A DNA stretch of 64,000 bases. Source: a virus. The stretch is taken from the IMG/VR virus record IMGVR_UViG_3300010382_000019, positions 263 through 64,262 of that record. The stretch is one strand, 5' to 3'. Within the stretch, counting starts at the first letter, position 1, and each line of letters begins with the position of its first letter. The notes beneath the pieces were generated by a model. The model was not told where the DNA came from. It saw nothing but the letters and a program-made list of their open reading frames with translations, and did no database searches. Shown in pieces: positions 2,386 through 18,053 of this stretch. Both the position numbers and the translations under genes were made by a program.

Positions 2386-2787
2386 TCACCTTACTTTATT
2401 TTTATTAGGGTTATACTTCTCCTTATTAATAATTTTTAGATGCTGCAAGCTAAGACTAATTGCATTTTTTAAAAGTGAGAGAGATTCTTTATCTATTGAT
2501 TCCCCTTCGTAATGTAATGTACCATCCTCCCCATTTTCAATTTTTTTCATTATATTTTCTAAATCTTTTGCGATGTCTTTTGCGTCTTTTGCGGATAGCT
2601 CTCTGCCAAGTAGGTAATCAGTCGTTACATTAAAATAATCTGCTACTTTTGCTAACCTATCACCGGATGGGGCTGTTTTTCCCCATTTTTTTATAGTCCC
2701 ATTGCCCAAACCCAGCGTTCTTTCTAATGCTGCAATAGTTATGTTGTTTCCTTCACAAAGTTTTTGAATTTTTTCTAACATATTCAA
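2386..2787 (-). CDS. XRE-family phage repressor (ImmR/CI-like)
   Basis: HTH LERTLGLGNGTIKKW...VADYFNVTTDYLLGR. Divergent from the lytic genes. Confidence 0.9.
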   Translation of the reverse strand: MNMLEKIQKLCEGNNITIAALERTLGLGNGTIKKWGKTAPSGDRLAKVADYFNVTTDYLLGRELSAKDAKDIAKDLENIMKKIENGEDGTLHYEGESIDKESLSLLKNAISLSLQHLKIINKEKYNPNKNKVR

Positions 2788-2835
2788 AATAGTCTACCCC
2801 CTAAAAAAGCATTTTCGCAAATAGATAAAAAGACA

Positions 2836-2864
2836 TTGACAAATAGACTGTAGACTATTACAAT
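2836..2864 (+). promoter_or_regulatory. sigma-A lytic promoter (PR-like)
   Basis: TTGACA (2836-2841), 17-bp spacer, TACAAT (2859-2864). Confidence 0.75.
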
Positions 2865-2958
2865 TAGGGTGCATACTAAAATATATAAATATACAATAAC
2901 AATTTTAGAATACAGTCTAAAAGCATAAGCCTACATACTATTTTTAGTCTACAAGCTA

Positions 2959-2987
2959 ATAATAGAATATTTTCTATTACATGTCAA
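2959..2987 (-). promoter_or_regulatory. sigma-A repressor promoter (leftward)
   Basis: On the minus strand: TTGACA (2987-2982), 17-bp spacer, TATTAT (2964-2959). Confidence 0.65.
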
Positions 2988-3035
2988 TACTAATGTGTGA
3001 ATTTTTAGCACAAAATATGAAAGGAAGGTGAAAAC

Positions 3036-3341
3036 ATGCTCTTTATCAAGGTTAACCAACTTTGCATACAAAATGGGATCACAATAACAAAGTTAGAAAA
3101 AGAACTAAAGTTTGGCAATGGCACTATCCACAAATGGAGTACTTCACAGCCTTCTATAAAAAAAGTGAAAAAGGTTGCTGAATATTTCAAAGTGGGAATT
3201 GATTATCTGGTTAGTGACAGTTTAACTATACCATCTAAAGAAAGCATGGAATTAGCAATGGACTACGAGTCTTTAACAGCTAACCAGAAGGGATTAGTAA
3301 GATGTTATTTATCACTTATAAAAAATGGACAAGCGGTATAG
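3036..3341 (+). CDS. Cro-like XRE regulator
   Basis: HTH paralogous to the repressor (LEKELKFGNGTIHKW...VAEYFKVGIDYL). Confidence 0.85.
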   Translation: MLFIKVNQLCIQNGITITKLEKELKFGNGTIHKWSTSQPSIKKVKKVAEYFKVGIDYLVSDSLTIPSKESMELAMDYESLTANQKGLVRCYLSLIKNGQAV

Positions 3342-3350
3342 GAGGCTACA

Positions 3351-3506
3351 ATGAAAAAAGAAAGAGAAATCAATGTTGTAGTTAACTTTACGGAGGGGTG
3401 GGAAGAAAGGTTTGCAAAAGCGGCCTATGACCTCTATTTAATGGTAGAAGCGAGAAAGTCTGCACAAAACGAAAAAGAATGTTTCAAACCTACATACAGT
3501 AATTGA
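3351..3506 (+). CDS. Small hypothetical early protein (51 aa), not in ORF track
   Basis: GGAGG RBS, then MKKEREINVVVNFTEGWEERFAKAAYDLY... Confidence 0.65.
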   Translation: MKKEREINVVVNFTEGWEERFAKAAYDLYLMVEARKSAQNEKECFKPTYSN

Positions 3507-3870
3507 GCAAAAACCATAAAGTAACTGGAAAAAGTCTTATCTAAACCCTATAAAACATATTATACGAGGAGGAAAAGAAATGAAAAGAACTACAAGTAAT
3601 TTCACAAATAAGTAAAAGAAAAACACCCTTTCGGGTGCAAATAAAAAAATATATATAAACGAATACAAAAAGGATTTGGTAATCAAAGCATACCATAACA
3701 AGGAGGTTTTAACAATACATATTGACAAATATGGGAAATATTTGTTTGTGATAATAATTCTAATCTTGTACATGATTGTAGGCACGATAGAATATAAAAA
3801 CGAGTTACAGAAGGATATCGGAAAATATCTCAATACAAAAATATTTATTAAATTTAAGGAGGAGAACTAA

Positions 3871-4158
3871 ATGTTTGAAAAAGAGAGAATAGCAACACCA
3901 ACGAATGAGGAGGAAACTAAGAAAAAGGTAAAAGAGGCTATTATCGTTTTCAATGATGGTAGCACAATAACGGTTAATAAGTTTTTGGGGGTTTTTCTCC
4001 AAGGTGGTGAGGTGGGAAAGGTGGATATAGTAATAAACCATGTAAACACTGTAGAGCTGTTGGCCTCAATGTCTGACTTGAACGAACATGTTCATAAACT
4101 TTTATTCAGTTCTATTGATCCGGTTGGAATGCTGAAGAAAATTTTTGAAAATGTATAA
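3871..4158 (+). CDS. Hypothetical phage protein
   Basis: AAGGAG RBS; part of the early operon. Confidence 0.7.
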   Translation: MFEKERIATPTNEEETKKKVKEAIIVFNDGSTITVNKFLGVFLQGGEVGKVDIVINHVNTVELLASMSDLNEHVHKLLFSSIDPVGMLKKIFENV

Positions 4159-4187
4159 ATGCAGTGTAGTAGAAGGAAGCGAGATCA

Positions 4188-4475
4188 ATGCTAATAGCCG
4201 ATTATGTCGGATATATGCCAGAAATAGAGGTAGAAAGCAAGGGGTATGTAAATCGGAATACTGTAGTAATTAAAATTGGAGAAGTTGAGTTTACCCTTAA
4301 TGAAGCAGATGCAAAAGAACTGCATGAGTGCTTAGAAAAAGAATTATACAACGAAATAAGGGAAAATTTAATAGATGAAATTGATAGTACGAGGGACAAG
4401 CTATATGAAGCAGAGGACAAAATAAGCGATTTGAAAGATTATATTGAACAGATAGAAGAACGATTGGAGGGATAA
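4188..4475 (+). CDS. Hypothetical phage protein (acidic coiled coil)
   Basis: Operon-packed ORF. Confidence 0.7.
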   Translation: MLIADYVGYMPEIEVESKGYVNRNTVVIKIGEVEFTLNEADAKELHECLEKELYNEIRENLIDEIDSTRDKLYEAEDKISDLKDYIEQIEERLEG

Positions 4476-8640: not shown

Positions 8641-9270
8641 CTAGGAATTCCACAACCTTTCTGAGCTTATATCTTTAATGCAGCAGTCATGCATAATCTT
8701 GTTGTAATCCGGATTATCATGCAAGTTATAATTCGATGCCAGTCTTTTTAATTTTTCTGCCAGTATAAGAATACTCTCTTCCGTGTATTCCTTACAACAT
8801 CCTTTAAATATTTTATCACAACAAAAGTATGCATATGTAAACTTATGATCGCAAGAATCCTTATTGCATTCGACTGAAAACGATTTTAAATAATCATAGG
8901 AAAATCCGCGTGAAAAAGTAAGAAATGTAGCTTGCTTTTCAATCTGACCGTTCTTTATACTTTTATCAATCCCAATTCCATTTATAAACTGTACTAAATG
9001 CAATAGTTCATGGGCGGTAGTAGATCTAATTCTCCATTCTGACAATGCCAAAGCTTCTTCCCGAATAACAATTTGCATTACTGGTTCATAATTAGCGAAC
9101 CATCCGTTTTTTCTAAGTAAAAGATAAACCTTATCCTTTATTTCCGGGAATTGTTTTAGAATTGGTTCTAAATATTGTTTGGCATATTCGGTGATTTTTA
9201 TTGCTTTATCACTTTTTATCCTTTTCCCATATAAAGCCCAACCTTCTTGACCTAATTTCTCCTCATTCAT
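8641..9270 (-). CDS. HExxH-motif metalloprotein (peptidase-like)
   Basis: STTAHELLHLVQ...EKQA; Cys-rich C-terminus. Confidence 0.6.
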   Translation of the reverse strand: MNEEKLGQEGWALYGKRIKSDKAIKITEYAKQYLEPILKQFPEIKDKVYLLLRKNGWFANYEPVMQIVIREEALALSEWRIRSTTAHELLHLVQFINGIGIDKSIKNGQIEKQATFLTFSRGFSYDYLKSFSVECNKDSCDHKFTYAYFCCDKIFKGCCKEYTEESILILAEKLKRLASNYNLHDNPDYNKIMHDCCIKDISSERLWNS

Positions 9271-9400: not shown

Positions 9401-10108
9401 TTAACAGGACGCATATGTAACCAGTTGATTGTAAAACTCATTTCCGAATAAATATCTTAAATGGTATTCCATCGTTTTATATACAGGTATTGAATCAATT
9501 AACGGCTTTTCAACACAATCCATGAAATTTCTCCAACGAACAAACTTGGCAGTCTCTGCGGTAGCCAACGTAATAAATATTTCTTCATTATCCAAAATAA
9601 TAATTTCTAGTGGAGATATACAACAATCAAATGGTTTTACGGAGTAAACTGGTATGTGATTTATTTCTGAAATTCTATGCAATGAACAAAATCTATTTCT
9701 ACCTTCATTGGCTAAAAATATACATTCATCATTAATTTCATTAAGCTTATACCTACATAAAGTCATTTGACCTTGATGCAGCAGGTTAGCCTTTTCCTCT
9801 GAAAGATATTTAACTGCATTATTAATATATAATTCTAATATTTTTTCATTGTACGGCGACACAATGCCACCACCATCGCAACAGGTTCCGGTAAAATTTT
9901 CTGATGCATGAAAAGTGCAATGCTGTGGATCGCAAGACCATTTTCTATTGACAATTGCATTTTTATCCACATTGATATTCCCTATCTTTATTATTTCTAT
10001 TTTCCCTATGTACTCATTTACAAGGTTTGAATCCGGTTTATAGTCTTCAAACCTCTCACCAGTATTTCTATAATATTGTATAAACCCACTCCCCTTCAAT
10101 TGCCTCAA
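9401..10108 (-). CDS. DUF3109/YkgJ-like cysteine-cluster protein
   Basis: CDPQHC...GTCCDGG...CIFL...CSLH...KPFDCCISP. Confidence 0.65.
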   Translation of the reverse strand: MRQLKGSGFIQYYRNTGERFEDYKPDSNLVNEYIGKIEIIKIGNINVDKNAIVNRKWSCDPQHCTFHASENFTGTCCDGGGIVSPYNEKILELYINNAVKYLSEEKANLLHQGQMTLCRYKLNEINDECIFLANEGRNRFCSLHRISEINHIPVYSVKPFDCCISPLEIIILDNEEIFITLATAETAKFVRWRNFMDCVEKPLIDSIPVYKTMEYHLRYLFGNEFYNQLVTYASC

Positions 10109-11571
10109 AGATCACGACTATCTTCCAACTTTACTATATCCTTAAAAGAATAATCACCATCCAAAATGTTATGAGACACGTTAGTTAAATTGTTTTTATA
10201 AACTTTCAAATTTTGACCTTGATACAGCCACATATATAAGTTTTCTTTAGCTGCAATACTTTGTATATCAGAGTAAATTTTCTTTTTTGAAGTGTTGTCT
10301 TTTTCAAATTTTACTTTATGGATCAAAGAGTCAATTTCATAATTTGAAAAACCTGCAACATTTGCAATATCACCATTTTTATGATAAAAGTCATATACAA
10401 AACTATAGGGGTTGTTTGTATCTGGAGCATATGACAAAAATGACAAATCAAAATTGCCTGAATCAAACTCTTTACAAAATTGAGCAAACGGCAGTTTAAT
10501 AATTTCACATTCAATACCAATTGATGCAAGACCTTGTCCTAAAATACCACATGCTATATCTGCATCCTCCATTCCTGATACACTTAGTATTTTCAGTTTG
10601 GGGATGTTGGCTAAACCAATACTGTCAATAATATGTTTGGCTTCTTTTGTACTATAATTAATAAAAGATATATTGGGATTATGCGAATACACTCCTTTGG
10701 GAATAGCTGTATTTATTCTTATTCCCATTCCCATTCTTCCAGATTCCAGAAAATAATCGTAATCAAAGGACATTAATAGCGCAAGTCTAAATTTATTTAT
10801 GTCTAACGGTGTATGTTTGGAGTTTAACACAAACAACACCATATCCAAAGCATCAAACTTTTTAATTCTGATATTTCTATATTCACTGAGTTCTTTTGTT
10901 TTACTTGCCTGAACAGCCATAATATCACCAATAGTCAAAAAGAGCTGCTTTCTTTTTTCGTAATCACTTTCACAAATAATTCTTATATAATGAGTATACG
11001 GCTTAGTGCCCCAATACTGATCAAACCTTATTAATTCAATTTCTTTTTTGTCGCTATTGATTGTGTTTAGCTTAAAGGGACCAGTACCAATGGCACATTT
11101 TAATTGTATATCTGAGTTTCTTAACAACTGGGGGCTGATAATTGAACTCTCCTGAATAGCCAAAAAATAGATTAAATCCGGACAATCGTATTCCAATTCA
11201 ATGCAGAGAAGATATTTATTTATACAGAGTATTTTAGTATCCTTTAATAACCCGCTAAATAATTGCCTGGCTTTATTAGATTTATTTAACATTCGTACCA
11301 AAGACTCTTTTACAGCATAGGAATCACATTCTAATCCATCGTGAAAGCAAATATTCTTTTTTAGCTCAAAGTAATAAAGATTATCTGATTCAACCCACCA
11401 CGTAGCAACTAAAACGGGAACACAGCTATTTCCTATAAAACCGAATAGTTTTTCATAAATGTTATCAATAATTTCCCTGCTGATTGTGTCAGATGCGAAC
11501 ACCGGATCTATTGAACTTGGCATATCAATTTGAAGTCTGTATATAGTTTGCATGTTTTCCGTATTACTCAT
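10105..11571 (-). CDS. Family-5 (peptide/nickel) solute-binding domain protein lacking a signal peptide
   Basis: SIDP, IYEKL, FHDG, IGTGPFKL, YWG motifs. No hydrophobic N-terminus or lipobox. Confidence 0.8.
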   Translation of the reverse strand: MSNTENMQTIYRLQIDMPSSIDPVFASDTISREIIDNIYEKLFGFIGNSCVPVLVATWWVESDNLYYFELKKNICFHDGLECDSYAVKESLVRMLNKSNKARQLFSGLLKDTKILCINKYLLCIELEYDCPDLIYFLAIQESSIISPQLLRNSDIQLKCAIGTGPFKLNTINSDKKEIELIRFDQYWGTKPYTHYIRIICESDYEKRKQLFLTIGDIMAVQASKTKELSEYRNIRIKKFDALDMVLFVLNSKHTPLDINKFRLALLMSFDYDYFLESGRMGMGIRINTAIPKGVYSHNPNISFINYSTKEAKHIIDSIGLANIPKLKILSVSGMEDADIACGILGQGLASIGIECEIIKLPFAQFCKEFDSGNFDLSFLSYAPDTNNPYSFVYDFYHKNGDIANVAGFSNYEIDSLIHKVKFEKDNTSKKKIYSDIQSIAAKENLYMWLYQGQNLKVYKNNLTNVSHNILDGDYSFKDIVKLEDSRDL

Positions 11572-12760
11572 AATGTTTCTCCTGTTGTACTATTATTTTC
11601 TTACTATAATCAATTATCCCAAGACCGCCAAATAATAAGCCTGCAATAACTATATAAATAATTGAGAAGCATATTGGTCCGACTTTAATAGTGAATTTAT
11701 CTATAATGTTACCTAAAAATATATTTCCTAAAACATCACCGATACTCGCGCTCAACGAAATCAGAGCAAATTCAAATCCTTTAGCTTCATCTCTTATGTA
11801 CAATGTTTCTGCCTTTGGAACTGCGATATATGTGCATGTTACAAATATACTGCAAAGTAAAAATATAATCAGGAAGCCAAAGGAGTTGTTAACAATTGTC
11901 ATAAAAATACCTATGAAGGAAGCTAAAAAATAGCTAAAGCAAGCCATCTTTTTTACATCGACCTTATCAGCAATATGCCCTGCAATTATGTATGTTGGGG
12001 AACCTATGAACTCATCCAGCGACATAACAAACCCTAATGATGCCGCAGTGTAACCAAATGTAATGTAAAAATGCATAGGTACTATAACATTCCACATAGG
12101 GCTAGTCACAAATGTTTGCAAAAACATTACCACACAAAACAAATAAATCTTTTTACTCATGCCACTAAACAAATTCTTATCAATGAATTTATTATTACGA
12201 TTCTGTACTGAGGGTAAAAAAAACAGAGTTACTAATGCTGCCGCAAGCAATATTGCTGCTATTATAATAAATGCATATTTACCTTTGCTGAACTGATAAA
12301 GTAATCCGGTTGCTATACCTCCCAAGGAAGTTATGATTGATGATACTCCAAGTATATTTCCAAATCCCTTTCCTCTATCCTCAAATTCTGTTAGTTCTAC
12401 CGTATAAGAAGAATTTATTGATGTAAATACCCCTCGGCATACACCTAAACAACATAAGAGTATAAAATAATATGCTATTGGAGTTACAAAGGCCATTAAA
12501 AAGATTATTATAGCACCCGACACCAACGATATCATAAGGTATCTTTTTTGCCCAACTAGATCAGAATGTCTTCCAGTTATAACCTTTATAATAACCATTC
12601 CAAGAGAAAAGGAAGCCAGTCCCCCACCAATACTACTATAAGATAATCCCTGATCTGCCATTCTTAGCGGTATAATAATCGTAATAGCATTGAAGCTCAT
12701 TAGTAAACAACCTGAAACAATTGCAAAAACCCATAGCTGAACCTTTTTACTACATATCAT
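11564..12760 (-). CDS. MFS transporter (likely exporter)
   Basis: About 12 TM segments; GRHSDLVGQKR motif A; overlaps the next gene. Confidence 0.9.
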   Translation of the reverse strand: MICSKKVQLWVFAIVSGCLLMSFNAITIIIPLRMADQGLSYSSIGGGLASFSLGMVIIKVITGRHSDLVGQKRYLMISLVSGAIIIFLMAFVTPIAYYFILLCCLGVCRGVFTSINSSYTVELTEFEDRGKGFGNILGVSSIITSLGGIATGLLYQFSKGKYAFIIIAAILLAAALVTLFFLPSVQNRNNKFIDKNLFSGMSKKIYLFCVVMFLQTFVTSPMWNVIVPMHFYITFGYTAASLGFVMSLDEFIGSPTYIIAGHIADKVDVKKMACFSYFLASFIGIFMTIVNNSFGFLIIFLLCSIFVTCTYIAVPKAETLYIRDEAKGFEFALISLSASIGDVLGNIFLGNIIDKFTIKVGPICFSIIYIVIAGLLFGGLGIIDYSKKIIVQQEKHYE

Positions 12761-12813: not shown

Positions 12814-14190
12814 CTACCTTAGCAATTTGCCTTCCATTGTATGTAATTTGCTTAGTACAGGATATTTCTCAATCAGCCACATGATTTCAAGGAAAGTCTT
12901 CTTATAATCCGCACATTTTTCACTCCGTGCTCGAATATTATTGTTATTTGTATAATATGCCTGAGCCCTGCAGCCTCCACCGCAGAAAAATCTAAAATCA
13001 CATTTTTCACATATTGGGTTCAGGTTGCTTATATTGACGCTCCTATGTTCTTTAAATGTATTAGAATCTTTCCAAATATCTGCAAATGAACGGTTCCTAA
13101 TATTCTCGGCTTTATATTGTTCAATTTGAAAAGAAGGACAGGGGTAGACATCTCCATTTGCGGATATAGAACACGTATTTATACCTGAACCACAGCAATC
13201 GGTACGGATTGGCAATAAAACGGTCTCAATTAACTTACTAATAGCTGTGTCAATCAGTTTATTGAAAAGCCGCTCATCTACTGTAGCGTATTCTAATATT
13301 TTCTTAGTAACAAGGTATTCTTCGGGAATTTTTAAACCGTTTACCTCAGCATTACCGAAATTATTTAAGAAATTTAAAATTACTCTGTCAGCACCAATTT
13401 CATCTGCAAATTTAAAATATTCAATAATTTCATGTTGATTTCCCCGGTGGATAGTAATAGATAATGTAACCGGTACTCCTTTATCTACACACCATTTAAT
13501 ATTTCTTATAGTTTTATCGTATGTACCCGCACCACGAATATATTCATGTGCCGCTTTATCCACACCATCCAATGATATTGTCGTTGGAATTTTATGTTGT
13601 GCCAAATAATGGACTATTTCTTCAGTAAAGAGTAAACCATTTGTTATAAAATTAGGTTCAATTCCGGGTATATTTATTGCATCAAATATTTCAACAATAT
13701 CTTTCCTTAATAAAGGCTCTCCACCAGTAATGTCAAGCTTTACGCCGTTTTTACCCCCCACTTTTACAATCTCTGCTGCTAATTTTCTCATTTCTTGCGG
13801 ACTTAATTTGTTTTCTACCTGAGTTTTTTCTCCTAAAAAGCAATGTCTGCAATTAATATTGCATCTGGATTCGATATTCAGCCATACACCCTGCAAAGGA
13901 TAAACTTCAGTCTTTTCTTCGTTATTATCAGGTGAATTCTGTACATCACCAACATATAAGATGCCTTCATTAATGAGCATATTAACAAACTCTTGAGTTT
14001 GACTGTCAAGATCTCTTACTTCCTGCAATGACATTCCGTTTACCTTTCTCATAATGTCACTGCTACCTTTTGAAGCAATAAACCAAAAAGGTATTTCTGG
14101 AAAGATAATGATTTCTTTGCTTCCTTCACTATTTTTATAACTACTCATTTTCCCTAATAAATTTATTTTCTCGTTTATTTTGATTTCCAA
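12814..14190 (-). CDS. Radical SAM/SPASM peptide maturase with RRE-like N-terminus
   Basis: CNINCRHC, TGGEPLL, SLDG, SPASM CCGSG...VYPC...CEKC...FCGGGCRA. Likely TTG start at 14190 after the GAGGGGGG RBS (ORF track gives 14205). Confidence 0.92.
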   Translation of the reverse strand: MEIKINEKINLLGKMSSYKNSEGSKEIIIFPEIPFWFIASKGSSDIMRKVNGMSLQEVRDLDSQTQEFVNMLINEGILYVGDVQNSPDNNEEKTEVYPLQGVWLNIESRCNINCRHCFLGEKTQVENKLSPQEMRKLAAEIVKVGGKNGVKLDITGGEPLLRKDIVEIFDAINIPGIEPNFITNGLLFTEEIVHYLAQHKIPTTISLDGVDKAAHEYIRGAGTYDKTIRNIKWCVDKGVPVTLSITIHRGNQHEIIEYFKFADEIGADRVILNFLNNFGNAEVNGLKIPEEYLVTKKILEYATVDERLFNKLIDTAISKLIETVLLPIRTDCCGSGINTCSISANGDVYPCPSFQIEQYKAENIRNRSFADIWKDSNTFKEHRSVNISNLNPICEKCDFRFFCGGGCRAQAYYTNNNNIRARSEKCADYKKTFLEIMWLIEKYPVLSKLHTMEGKLLR

Positions 14191-14218
14191 AAGAACCCCC
14201 CTCAATTCATAGTATTGT

Positions 14219-14248
14219 AAGGGGCAATACGAGTGTGTATTGCCCCTT
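14219..14248 (-). terminator. 12-bp hairpin between precursor gene and radical SAM gene
   Basis: AAGGGGCAATAC-6 nt-GTATTGCCCCTT. No U-tract in the sense direction. Confidence 0.6.
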
Positions 14249-14255
14249 GACCCAT

Positions 14256-14336
14256 TTAGATAGAGTATTTGGTATGTGAAAAATGGTCTCTAAATGAGAT
14301 CGGAGTCTTCCTCTGTGCTACTGCAAATAGTTTCAT
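14256..14336 (-). CDS. Putative RiPP precursor peptide MKLFAVAQRKTPISFRDHFSHTKYSI (26 aa), not in ORF track
   Basis: GAGGAGG RBS; first gene of the radical SAM operon; followed by a hairpin. Confidence 0.75.
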   Translation of the reverse strand: MKLFAVAQRKTPISFRDHFSHTKYSI

Positions 14337-14869
14337 ACCCTCGCCTCCTCTCTTTAGCATGTTTAATCTATTATCATACTAATAGATTTATAATTTGGAT
14401 GTATCACAATATTACTCATTCCACAGAATACTTCAAACAGTGGATCAATATAGCAAATACTTTATTTGCTACATATAATCCAAGTTTAGTTTCTCAACTC
14501 CTCTATAGTTTTGTATATCTTTTACATAAATCTAACTCCTCTGTTATTTTTACTTTTGCTTGGATAATCATATATATTTGTATACTAGGTCATCTGCATC
14601 CCATTTTTGTATATAGTTCTTGCAGGGGTGAAATTAAATTTTCTATTGCTATACAAAAACATATTATTACAAATCAAGTTACATTTTGTATAAATGTTTC
14701 CACTTATTCAAGCATATTACATTATTACACAAGAGTCCAATATTATCGCTAGACAGCATTTGATACATCGTGATAAATTTGGTCAATATATGTATTTATT
14801 TATCATTGTTCTTCATTCAAATAAAGAATAAAACAGATAACCCCCACAAATTAAATAAGAATAAAAAAT

Positions 14870-14958
14870 CCCCCTCACTTCGTAAACCGAAAAAATGAGG
14901 GGGGTAGAGGTTTATTTAAAAAAAAACCTCCTGCATAGTCCTCAGACCGGACAGGAGG
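14870..14958 (-). terminator. Two tandem intrinsic terminators downstream of signal peptide C
   Basis: CCTCCTG/CAGGAGG (14927-14958) and CCCCTCA/TGAGGGG (14870-14902), each followed by a U-run on the minus strand. Confidence 0.65.
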
Positions 14959-14969
14959 CTTCTTCACTA

Positions 14970-15101
14970 CTATGGCATAACCTGTTCCGCAGCATATCTT
15001 ACAATACTAAGTGGATCTTTATCGATCCCAGCAAACACGCTTACCGGCATTGACAGTATAAGGGTCATTGCCAGAAGCAGGCTGATTATTGTCTTTTTCA
15101 A
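14970..15101 (-). CDS. Secreted signalling pro-peptide C (MKKTIISLLLAMTLILSMPVSVFA-GIDKDPLSIVRYAAEQVMP)
   Basis: AAAGGAGG RBS overlapping the receptor stop, TTG start, Sec signal peptide ending VFA. Confidence 0.85.
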   Translation of the reverse strand: MKKTIISLLLAMTLILSMPVSVFAGIDKDPLSIVRYAAEQVMP

Positions 15102-15117
15102 AGAAAAGACCTCCTTT

Positions 15118-16209
15118 CTAATTGGAATTATTTATGTCCTGGATGTACTTACGTATATTTCCCAGGCAGCTTTCCAGTTCCCTCTTGTATTCAAGGTTCT
15201 CCGCCGAAGTATATTTAATAAGCTTTTCCACCACTGCCTCCAGCTTTTTCAGCATTTTCCCGTCTTTCGCAACTGCTTTTGCCAGTGAATCAATGTTTTC
15301 AGTTATATAGCTCTTGTACACGGCATAGTCTTCTATATTGAATAACATCTCCAGGAATTTGTCTAAGGCTTTTTCCGGCTCTCCCAGCAACACTTCAATT
15401 TCCGTATAGGTTGTAAAATAAACAAAAAGCAAAGACGTATCTTTATTGTCCAGATATTCAAACGCCTTGTTTATATGCTCCAGTGCCTTTTTATAGTCGC
15501 CTGCTGCCTTATAAAGCTCCGCCAGATTGTTATATATTTTGCTTTTATCGAAATAATCGTTTTCCCCAAACATACCCAGTGCTTTGTCATAGTACTCCAG
15601 TGCCTTATCGAAATCCGACTGTACCTCATAATTTATTCCTATATTCATCAGAGTGTATCCTATATCAGTTTTTTCCTCAGCGTATGAAAAGGCTTTCTCC
15701 AACATTTCCTGTGCAAGCTCATATTTATTAAAAGGTGATTTGGCAAGCAGCGTGCCGTACCTGTAATAATGGAGAAACAGTATATGCCTGTCCAGGTCGG
15801 GAATATCCGGCAGCAGCTTTTCTACATATTTGTACTCTGCTTCGGCTGATTTATGCTCGTGCTTGTAAAAATATATAAGCCCAAGCTCCGAGCTATAGGC
15901 GGCAAGCAAGTTCTTCCTGCCGTGTACCTTTGCCATGTCTATCGCTATTTGCAGCATTTCCAAAGCAATTTTTATGTTGTTCCTGTAAAAATGCTGCATG
16001 CCGATAACACGGTACATTTCGATTGCCCCTGCCGTCAAGCCTTTTTGGTCACACCTGAGTTTAAGCCGCCACAGTATGTAAATATCATTTTCTCCTGTGT
16101 ATTTCTTTATATTTTTTGACACATGTTCCACTAAAGCCGCTAGCTTCTCACTGTCCGCCTCATTTATTTCCCGCTCTGTCAGTCCGGTCCTGCCAATAGA
16201 TAATTCCAA
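15118..16209 (-). CDS. RRNPP-like TPR peptide receptor 2
   Basis: TPR repeats (TLMNIGINYE..KALEYYDKAL; IYNNLAELY..KALEHINKA). Likely TTG start at 16209 after GAGGTGG (ORF track gives 16266). Confidence 0.85.
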   Translation of the reverse strand: MELSIGRTGLTEREINEADSEKLAALVEHVSKNIKKYTGENDIYILWRLKLRCDQKGLTAGAIEMYRVIGMQHFYRNNIKIALEMLQIAIDMAKVHGRKNLLAAYSSELGLIYFYKHEHKSAEAEYKYVEKLLPDIPDLDRHILFLHYYRYGTLLAKSPFNKYELAQEMLEKAFSYAEEKTDIGYTLMNIGINYEVQSDFDKALEYYDKALGMFGENDYFDKSKIYNNLAELYKAAGDYKKALEHINKAFEYLDNKDTSLLFVYFTTYTEIEVLLGEPEKALDKFLEMLFNIEDYAVYKSYITENIDSLAKAVAKDGKMLKKLEAVVEKLIKYTSAENLEYKRELESCLGNIRKYIQDINNSN

Positions 16210-16474
16210 TAGTTCCACCTCATGTCTCATATGTATTTCGGTGTATATTATACAACATATTTCCATATAAATATATATTATTCGATTGACAAATTGCTAC
16301 ATAAGCTGTATATGCTGTAGCGTACTTACCCATAAATATGTACATTTCAAGAAATTACTGCAAAATACCTTATGAATGACAGTGACATATTCAGCCTGCA
16401 ACAAATATCAGGACTGCGTAAAGCAAAAGTAAAGCCTCCTGCATAGTCATTAGACCGGACAGGAGGCTTTACCA

Positions 16475-16606
16475 CTATGGCATAACCTGTTCTACAGTAT
16501 CTCTTGCAATATTAAGTGGGTTTATATAGTTTCCTGCAAATACGTTTACTGTCATTGACAGTATAAGGGTCATTGCCAGAAGCAGGCTGATTATTGTTTT
16601 CTTCAA
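16475..16606 (-). CDS. Secreted signalling pro-peptide B (MKKTIISLLLAMTLILSMTVNVFA-GNYINPLNIARDTVEQVMP)
   Basis: AAAGGAGG RBS, TTG start, signal peptide; followed by a CCTCCTG/CAGGAGG terminator (about 16434-16467). Confidence 0.85.
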   Translation of the reverse strand: MKKTIISLLLAMTLILSMTVNVFAGNYINPLNIARDTVEQVMP

Positions 16607-16623
16607 AGAAAAGCCCTCCTTTC

Positions 16624-16758
16624 TCACTTTGGTATAACCTGTTCCTCAGCATATTTTGCAATATTATCTGGATCACTATAGTTTCCGGCAAATACGCTTA
16701 CCGGCATTGAGAGTATAAGGGTCATTGCCAGAAGCAGGCTGATAACTGTTTTTTTCAA
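16624..16758 (-). CDS. Secreted signalling pro-peptide A (MKKTVISLLLAMTLILSMPVSVFA-GNYSDPDNIAKYAEEQVIPK)
   Basis: AAAGGAGG RBS, TTG start, signal peptide; directly downstream of receptor 1. Confidence 0.85.
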   Translation of the reverse strand: MKKTVISLLLAMTLILSMPVSVFAGNYSDPDNIAKYAEEQVIPK

Positions 16759-16795
16759 AGAAAAGCCCTCCTTTCCCATTTGATTTATTTTCCTA

Positions 16796-17860
16796 CTATA
16801 TGTACTTACGTATATTCGCCAGACATCTTTTTAATTCCTTGTTGTATTCAGTGTTTTCCTCCGAAGTGTATTTAATAAGCGTATCAACCACTGCTTCCAG
16901 CTTTTTCAGCATTTTTATATTTTCCGCACCTATTGTTGTCAGGGAAGCAATATTTTCAGTAATATAGCTCTTGTATACGGTAATATCTTCTATATGGTAA
17001 AACATCTCCATGAATTTGTCCAAGGCTTTTTCCGGATCTCCCATTAATACCATAATTTCCGTATAGGTTGTAAAATAAATAAAAAGCTTAGTTACATCTT
17101 TGTTGTTCAGGTAATCAAATGCCTTATTTATATGCTTCAGTGCCTTTTTATATTCGCCTGCTGCCCTGTAAAGCTCCGCCAGGTTATTGTATACTACGCT
17201 TTTATTGAAATAATCTCTTTTCTCAAAGGTATCCAGTGCTTTATTATAGTACTCCAGTGCTTTATCGAAATCCGACTGTTCCTCATAATTTATGCCTATA
17301 TTCATCAAGGTTTTTCCTACATAAACTTTTTCTTCAGTATATAAAAGGGCTTTCTCAAATGAATGCTCTGCAAGCTCATATTCATGCAGAATTCTATAAA
17401 GTATACCATACCTGGAATAATGAAGATACAATATATGCCTGCCCAGGTCAGGAATATCCGGCAGCAGCTTTTCTACACGTTTGTACTCTACTTTGGCTAA
17501 TATATGCTCGTGATCGTAAAAATATACAAGCCCAAGCTCCGAGCTGTAGGCGGCTACCAGGTCCTTCCTCCCGATTTCCTCTGCTTTATTTATTGCCAGG
17601 CGCAGCTTGTCCTTGGCAAATATCATATTGTTCCTGTAAAAATAATACATGCCGACAGCACGGCACATTTTGATATTCTCAACCGTAAGCTCTTTATCAT
17701 AGCACCTTTTTTTAAGCAGCCGCAGTATGTCAATGTCTTTTTCTTCGCTGTATTTCTTTATATTTTGCGAGACATATTCCACCATGGCTGTTAACTTCCC
17801 ACTATCCGCCTCATTTATGTCACGTTCTGTAATTCCGTCTTTGTCAATAATTGCTTTCAA
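16796..17860 (-). CDS. RRNPP-like TPR peptide receptor 1 (paralog of receptor 2)
   Basis: Co-linear similarity to the 15118-16209 protein along its length. Likely TTG start at about 17860 (ORF track gives 17968). Confidence 0.85.
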   Translation of the reverse strand: MKAIIDKDGITERDINEADSGKLTAMVEYVSQNIKKYSEEKDIDILRLLKKRCYDKELTVENIKMCRAVGMYYFYRNNMIFAKDKLRLAINKAEEIGRKDLVAAYSSELGLVYFYDHEHILAKVEYKRVEKLLPDIPDLGRHILYLHYSRYGILYRILHEYELAEHSFEKALLYTEEKVYVGKTLMNIGINYEEQSDFDKALEYYNKALDTFEKRDYFNKSVVYNNLAELYRAAGEYKKALKHINKAFDYLNNKDVTKLFIYFTTYTEIMVLMGDPEKALDKFMEMFYHIEDITVYKSYITENIASLTTIGAENIKMLKKLEAVVDTLIKYTSEENTEYNKELKRCLANIRKYI

Positions 17861-18053
17861 TAGTACCAACGCCCCCCTTAGTTGTATTATATTGTATATT
17901 ATACAACATATTGCCATGAGGGTAAATATTTTTAAAAAAATTGTAAAAATATATTGTAAAAATATCAAATTTTATGGACATTATAAGTTAGCAACTATTG
18001 AATCATGTCTAATATATGCAGTTTATGCTTGATAATAAAAAAAGAGGGTAGCT

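Follow-up and report, generated by a model that had tools for sequence, protein, structure and literature searches.

A conserved 26-residue precursor beside an RRE-like radical-SAM/SPASM maturase in a provirus, and the small cyclophanes that it may carry

Radical-SAM/SPASM triceptide maturases form three-residue cyclophanes, and His-linked rings of this size are already established. HaaB (HAA) and YhhB (HNR) make them, HtkB of Pandoraea joins His-C2 to Lys-Cβ on an HTK motif and also accepts FTK (PMC11499958), and in the case of MicB a single enzyme installs YSK, HAS and FTK rings in one core (PMC12912966). HtkB, a betaproteobacterial enzyme of cluster C09, needs D214 for its selectivity for Lys (PMC11499958). 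Dynobactin has likewise been described in the literature as carrying a His-centred three-residue ring. Here we compare a provirus locus with the triceptide enzymes (XncB/XyeB, OscB/GrrM, MscB/FxsB, YhhB, HaaB, the AmcB type, ChlB and MicB), with the darobactin and dynobactin systems, and with the streptococcal RaS-RiPPs.

The window, the whole stretch of 64,000 nucleotides that was analysed, belongs to a 64.7-kb provirus in IMG/VR. As in the triceptide clusters, the window encodes a radical-SAM/SPASM enzyme beside a short precursor whose aromatic-x-x motifs follow one another. The precursor gene (14256..14336, minus strand) comprises 26 codons and a stop codon, and homologous ORFs occupy the same position in related loci. 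Translation of the minus strand, from the ATG at 14336-14334 to the stop at 14258-14256, gives the peptide MKLFAVAQRKTPISFRDHFSHTKYSI, which can be divided into a leader, MKLFAVAQRKTPIS (codons 14295-14336, minus strand), and a core, FRDHFSHTKYSI (codons 14259-14294, minus strand). The first-pass annotation had read the last 12 residues as four aromatic-X-X triplets, FRD-HFS-HTK-YSI, and the translation confirms this, with F, H, H and Y at core positions 1, 4, 7 and 10. It had overlooked a fifth aromatic residue, the F at position 5 inside HFS, which lies out of register. The fraction of F, Y, W and H in the long ORFs of the window is 0.109, and the probability of finding aromatics at four of four fixed positions is ~1.4e-4 for one 12-mer. 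On its own this pattern is suggestive; conservation provides the stronger argument.

A strong ribosome-binding site, GAGGAGG (14344..14350, minus strand), is located 7 nt before the ATG of the precursor, which has no signal sequence. The open frame as a whole (14256-14360, minus strand) encodes 34 residues, and the 26-mer begins at its inner ATG. We rejected the 34-residue reading from the ATG at 14360, which lacks a ribosome-binding site and has an extension that is not kept in the homologs. In the gap between precursor and maturase the RNA is predicted to fold into a stem-loop (14221..14246, minus strand; -23.2 kcal/mol) with a 10-bp G+C-rich stem and a 6-nt loop, but without a T-run. A stem-loop follows the precursor stop codon in 11 of 12 loci, with unrelated sequences. 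The scan for promoters and terminators around the precursor did not call it as an intrinsic terminator, and the hits of that scan did not exceed those in shuffled sequence. The hairpin is probably a partial terminator or an mRNA-stabilising element. One sequencing run labelled as metatranscriptomic contains the locus, on the same 20.9-kb contig as the DNA run of the same sample and with flat depth; because its contigs match those of the DNA twin, it is uninformative on transcription.

From 14 loci that were fetched we obtained 11 further distinct precursors, which together with that of the window make a set of 12. Each of the 11 has a ribosome-binding site and an ATG and lies directly upstream of a homologous maturase (39-82% identity); in all 12 loci a GGAGG- or GGGG-type ribosome-binding site is found at equal distance from the ATG. 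The assignment of the ORF as the precursor of the adjacent maturase, proposed before from the window alone, is thus upheld by 12 distinct precursors beside homologous RRE/radical-SAM/SPASM enzymes. Aligned on the first Phe, the cores read FRDHFSHTKYSI (window), FRDNFTHTKYSI, FRHNFTHTKYSI, FKQYFMHTKYGTV, FKVHFMHTKYGSI, FRRYYTHGKYQE, FKKYYSHGTYNKK, FKCYYSHGVYSK, FTTHFSHPDYNR, FKKHFTHGKYSIA and FRRYFTHGKYTE, with FKCYYSHGVYSK occurring in two loci with different leaders. The consensus of the 12 precursors is F-[RKT]-x-[HYN]-[FY]-[STM]-H-[TGP]-[KTVD]-Y-x-x. A literature search with the core strings returned nothing relevant, and a profile of the 12 peptides run against 1.84 billion proteins matched nothing beyond the family itself, counting miscalled versions of its members.

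Position 1 is F, position 7 is H and position 10 is Y in all 12 precursors, and position 5 is always aromatic (F in eight, Y in four). Position 4 is H in four precursors, Y in six and N in two. The triplet register expected for the homologs therefore holds without exception at positions 1, 7 and 10, and at position 4 in 10 of 12, where His or Tyr is present; it breaks down in the two Asn precursors. These include the precursor of the commonest relative, whose maturase cluster occurs in 88 index blocks, and a four-ring product, with a ring on HFS, can therefore not be the rule for the family. Taken over the 12 precursors, aromatic residues fill 46 of 48 places in the phase 1/4/7/10, 12 of 48 in the phase 2/5/8/11 (all of them at position 5) and 1 of 48 in the phase 3/6/9/12. 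The i+2 positions 3, 6, 9 and 12 contain neither Gly nor Pro in any of the 12 precursors, so that a β-carbon is always present, while the i+1 positions 8 and 11 include both. Position 9 varies among K, T, V and D, giving H-x-K in eight of the 12. The tail after Y10 consists of two residues in eight loci and three in four, and is never shorter. The codons of the invariant F, H and Y change synonymously (TTT/TTC, CAT/CAC, TAT/TAC), from which it follows that selection acts on the precursor protein. These alignments establish the precursor gene as real and show selection on the period-3 phase of its aromatics.

The cores of the 12 precursors have no conserved Cys. We rejected a sactipeptide or ranthipeptide reading on this ground, and a thioether product appears unlikely from the sequences.

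Two database proteins, P0124 (197 aa) and P0125 (74 aa), start out as a family precursor and continue beyond its end; they are probably read-through or frameshifted gene calls. P0124 adds a thirteenth core variant, FKQHFMHTKYGAV. Two of the loci, L002 (4767-4877) and L003 (4797-4877), encode an identical maturase protein and share the last 11 core residues. The first Phe is preceded by L-A in L002 and by P-V-S in L003. The leader region of L002 has been replaced, and no ORF that opens with ATG and the usual MK is left, so the L002 precursor may be a decayed or rearranged allele.

We take the peptide to be a genuine precursor of a small clostridial RaS-RiPP family, and hypothesize that its invariant aromatic residues receive small cyclophanes of the three-residue type, a reading to which we give an even chance. 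In the proposed pathway the leader (the first ~14 residues) would lie as a β-strand on the RRE-like N-terminal domain of the maturase, which would take the C-terminal core of 12 residues into its active site. The enzyme would then abstract hydrogen from sp3 carbons of core residues and couple these to the rings of the invariant aromatics F1, F/Y5, H7 and Y10 of the core (F15, F19, H21 and Y24 of the 26-mer). The product would contain two to four cyclophane rings, each with a mass change of -2 Da and most probably spanning i to i+2, and would be exported by the MFS transporter of the cluster. The best ring candidates are His7-x-Lys9 and Tyr10-x-x12, and the ring at position 4 is the least secure. 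The chemistry of precursor modification is throughout what we infer; cross-linking of the precursor through its aromatic residues is probable.

Two registers of three-residue rings fit the alignments. The register 1/4/7/10 would account for the phase, for the Gly-free i+2 positions and for the tail of at least two residues, but it would lose a ring where position 4 is Asn and would leave the invariant position 5 over. The second register, with links F1-3, aromatic 5-His7, His7-9 and Tyr10-12, would use all four invariant residues and tolerate Asn4. The ring from position 5 to His7 would here be fused to that from His7 to position 9, which makes for a darobactin-like topology and, in our view, an equally good alternative. 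This fused pair through His7 would formally resemble W-N-W-S-K of darobactin: the parallel stretch in the window is F-S-H-T-K, and core positions 5-9 of the family read aromatic-x-His-[T/G/P]-[K/T/V/D], with Lys in 8 of 12, such that the middle aromatic could act as both acceptor and donor. In contrast to the darobactin and dynobactin systems (DarE, DynA), however, the window core has no Trp and the host is Gram-positive. The daropeptide motif [FY]5-x-H7 is present, but the maturase falls outside the DarE/DynA family as judged with the DynA model (87 bits, with a cut-off of 450). Besides these two registers, invariant residues could be joined by a larger link of the kind known from streptide or RrrB.

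Among the triceptides, MicA (YSK, HAS, FTK) resembles the window core in mixing Phe, Tyr and His motifs, and HtkA has the identical HTK triplet. In contrast to HtkB, which we compared by its description, position 9 in the window family can also be T, V or D, and no acidic residue at the enzyme interface tracks Lys. A search of the maturase alignment for residues that track Lys or non-Lys at core position 9 found seven columns that split, none of them acidic and none at the predicted interface, and this split is confounded by phylogeny. The window precursor also differs from triceptide precursors in being just 26 residues long and in having four motifs that abut without a spacer and fill the whole core.

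The maturase gene (12814..14205, minus strand; RRE-like, radical SAM and SPASM domains) lies directly downstream of the precursor on the same strand. It encodes 463 residues from a TTG start, whereas the database homologs begin five codons later (458 residues). Pfam detects Radical_SAM (1e-23) and SPASM (7.7e-11), and neither PqqD nor a B12 domain. C110, C114 and C117 of the CxxxCxxC motif and nine further Cys residues are invariant in 19 maturase homologs. In the AF2 model (pLDDT 86), four strands and three helices make up the N-terminal domain, which is predicted to be RRE-like and leader-binding. The best structural matches of the model are CteB, anSME, SuiB, TigE, PqqE and ChlB, with EpeE also present. 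CteB superimposes over its full length, N-terminal domain included (TM 0.65-0.70), and the overall fold resembles those of the RRE-bearing CteB and SuiB. At the six positions close to the catalytic site that form the proximity profile of PMC10288494, placed by alignment with CteB, the maturase has F, T, I, S, P and S, CteB has F, F, T, S, H and Q, and PqqE has S, S, I, S, H and A.

We modelled the complex of the maturase with SAM, three 4Fe-4S clusters and the precursor, alongside three controls. The predicted complex scored an ipSAE of 0.86, compared with 0.00 for the best of the three controls, on a scale where the mark is reached by 58 of 80 solved complexes and by 2 of 110 mismatched pairs; since peptide complexes of CteB, SuiB and ChlB are already solved, some of this score may come from what the predictor had learned of them. 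Three docking runs share at least 71% of their contacts, with a partner pLDDT of at least 65. In the predicted complex, KLFAVA of the leader pairs with the maturase strand 35-40, and P-I-S-F of the precursor pairs with maturase residues 324-330, just before a conserved Cys pair. The docking supports the precursor as the substrate of the maturase; it speaks to binding and not to which atoms react. The opposite reading, that the ORF is not a maturase substrate but a chance ORF or an unmodified signalling peptide upstream of the enzyme, is disfavoured, and we consider it very improbable: ORF, ribosome-binding site and position are kept down to 39% maturase identity, the invariant codons change synonymously, the leader is predicted to dock on the RRE with 0.86 against 0.00 in the controls, and the peptide lacks a signal sequence.

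The identity of the enzyme as a triceptide maturase, as suggested in the first-pass annotation, did not withstand comparison with curated families. No NCBIfam model reaches its cut-off for the maturase. The best scores are those of StsB (150 bits), NirJ2 (150), WgkB (145), AhbD (heme b synthase, 139.5), MftC (134) and PqqE (124), where the cut-offs of StsB and WgkB are 625-650 bits. The triceptide models score 29-53 bits against cut-offs of 310-450, below StsB, WgkB, MftC and PqqE: XyeB 34.9 (cut-off 450), FxsB 39.5 (370), the AmcB-type model NF041718 44.1 (425), YhhB 53.4 (445) and GrrM 28.9 (310). Generic radical-SAM genes of unrelated control genomes also match the triceptide-maturase models below cut-off. 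Among solved chains, PqqE matches with 82 bits, CteB with 67, SuiB with 50 and the triceptide synthase ChlB with 34. By these models the maturase is outside all five curated triceptide-maturase families tested; with its fused N-terminal RRE it resembles StsB, WgkB, MftC and PqqE more than the triceptide enzymes, and 'triceptide maturase' is an analogy for it rather than a classification. The characterised relatives in its SPASM neighbourhood form thioether, Lys-Trp, Arg-Tyr or Glu-Tyr links. Full-length similarity is, however, a poor predictor of radical-SAM/SPASM chemistry (PMC10288494), and the failure of the family models therefore weakens the claim of membership while leaving cyclophane chemistry possible. 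The locus could plausibly function as a triceptide system, although it does not count as one on family membership.

These scores bear on a second explanation, namely that the peptide is a genuine RaS-RiPP precursor with one or two larger or different links between its invariant residues, for instance His7-Tyr10, a bond to Tyr10 or Phe/Tyr5 from Lys9 or a different sp3 carbon, a link between F1 and position 5, or a C-N or C-O bond. Precedents for such links are Lys-Trp in streptide, Arg-Tyr for RrrB, Glu-Tyr for PqqE, WgkB, and His-N to Tyr-Cβ in dynobactin. The best curated or solved matches of the maturase (StsB, WgkB, MftC, PqqE, CteB and SuiB, not the triceptide maturases) point in this direction, as do the peptide quorum-sensing genes that adjoin the clusters, as they do those of the streptococcal RaS-RiPPs, and the observation that the four invariant residues are all aromatic while each proposed i+2 acceptor varies. 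Yet the period-3 phase, the i+2 positions free of Gly and Pro and the tail of at least two residues are predicted by the three-residue register and not required by other links, and the exact HTK motif has a proven precedent for a bond from His to Lys-Cβ. We regard different links as possible but rather unlikely.

The comparison with streptide (StrB/SuiB), tryglysin (WgkB), RrrB, streptosactin (GggB) and StsB extends beyond the enzyme. These systems likewise combine very short precursors with an RRE/radical-SAM/SPASM enzyme and a transporter, and have peptide quorum-sensing genes next door. The features of a RaS-RiPP system that we find in the window family are CxxxCxxC with the full SPASM Cys set, a precursor co-conserved upstream in 12 loci, and predicted docking on the RRE. 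In contrast to the streptococcal systems, the window precursors are unrelated in sequence, their conserved core has neither Trp nor Cys, and the regulators are RNPP, Agr or TPR proteins instead of shp/rgg.

The gene order precursor, radical SAM, MFS, (SBP5), DUF3109 is conserved across the homologous loci. The MFS transporter (11564..12760, minus strand; Pfam MFS_1 3e-42) follows the maturase in every homologous locus and is the probable exporter of the peptide product. The next gene encodes a protein with the fold of family-5 solute-binding proteins (10105..11571, minus strand; Pfam SBP_bac_5 1.3e-45). Neither a signal peptide nor a lipobox was present in any of the 10 homolog clusters examined, which indicates that the protein is cytoplasmic, and no ABC permease or ATPase genes lie beside it. 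A role in immunity, in sensing or as a peptide chaperone is conceivable. Homologs of this gene are found in loci L003, L006-L009, L171 and L174-L176; L004 and L005 lack one. A Cys-rich DUF3109 (Rv0495c-like) protein (9401..10108, minus strand; Pfam PF11307 1e-9) is encoded in most homologous clusters; a literature search found no role for DUF3109 in peptide modification. The SBP5-fold and DUF3109 genes set the window family apart from the triceptide clusters, in the literature on which we found neither, and a search for DUF3109 or SBP_bac_5 together with radical-SAM RiPPs also gave nothing relevant.

The binding-protein fold is NikA-like and, together with the conserved His and Tyr, could mean a metal-binding peptide. 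This is one form of a third explanation, in which the precursor is genuine but undergoes a change other than cross-linking (epimerisation, hydroxylation, desaturation or C-methylation) and the aromatics serve to bind a target or a metal. SPASM enzymes are known to epimerise and to catalyse other such changes, and EpeE is among the structural matches. However, the maturase has no B12 domain, which methylation would need, epimerase substrates are typically aliphatic whereas the conserved residues here are aromatic, and among full SPASM enzymes that combine two auxiliary clusters with a fused RRE and work on short aromatic cores, the literature has so far described mostly cross-linkers. We consider a change of this kind improbable.

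Further along, a 209-residue protein with an HExxH motif (8641..9270, minus strand) matches nothing in Pfam, NCBIfam or the PDB, has a homolog (61% identity) in locus L004 only, and is weakly linked to the cluster. It could serve as a leader peptidase or as an oxygenase. In RiPP clusters, proteins with this motif are sometimes α-ketoglutarate-dependent oxygenases and not proteases (PMC12636437), and a role as leader peptidase should therefore not be assumed.

Upstream of the precursor, the window contains two TPR receptor genes (Pfam). Neighbours associated with peptide signalling also occur elsewhere in the family, with RNPP-type genes in L002 and L003 and AgrB, with LytTR or kinase genes, in L005 and L008. 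The repeated association with quorum-sensing genes that are not homologous to each other suggests density-dependent control of the peptide. In L002 and L003 two RNPP-type HTH/TPR receptors occupy positions 2600-4450 beside the cluster; in L005 an AgrD-like peptide and AgrB are encoded at 1096-1798, and in L008 a LytTR regulator, a histidine kinase and AgrB at 1-2694. In contigs from the sediment sample, the region of the paralogous TPR receptor genes of the window (14912-17983) is recovered in many short pieces, with a summed depth 2-9 times higher and with variant letters. This pattern suggests that the assembly collapsed over repeats or that the sample contains several alleles.

The maturase/precursor family is rare. 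Relatives of the maturase form ~23 database clusters at E <1e-100 (39-82% identity), beyond which identity is at most 31%. At class level, the search centre itself was the sole match among 399 scored genomes, and at family level 2 of 387 genomes had matches. A scan of GTDB species found one locus; when the family alignment was run against IMG/VR and JGI metagenome contigs, no hit exceeded 31% identity. The commonest maturase relative is chromosomal, and the provirus location of the window cluster is therefore an exception.

Since His-linked three-residue rings have precedents, novelty would lie in the lineage of the enzyme, in motifs that abut and tile the core completely, and in the accessory genes. 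If the maturase makes three-residue cyclophanes, the chemistry arose in a second SPASM branch, which would bear on the prediction of radical-SAM function from sequence networks. The pair of a 26-residue precursor with a 14-residue leader and an enzyme with a fused RRE would then be a compact substrate-enzyme system for the engineering of peptide stapling, and a 12-mer that is fully stapled, or polycyclic with fused rings, would make a scaffold of unusual rigidity. Beside TPR receptors in a provirus, the cluster may encode a density-controlled, phage-borne weapon or signal. In its fullest form, the cyclophane proposal holds that a PqqE/MftC/StsB/WgkB-like enzyme with no relation to the known triceptide synthases independently reached three-residue cyclophanes and converts the whole 12-mer into four abutting or fused Phe/His/Tyr rings with no residue left unstapled, carried as cargo of a clostridial provirus beside peptide-signalling receptors; we speculate on it as a long shot. 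If the product contains an ordinary single cross-link, the locus adds one more RaS-RiPP family.

A sister enzyme family (28-29% identity), found on JGI metagenome contigs, has a conserved precursor of 30 residues with a ribosome-binding site (L010, 528-620; the same ORF is present in L011-L014 and L017). The sister precursor ends in ...ESQGTMYYRAE and has a single di-Tyr-Arg motif near the C-terminus. It is probably the precursor of another RaS-RiPP family, and judging from this motif the sister enzymes, too, seem to act on C-terminal aromatics.
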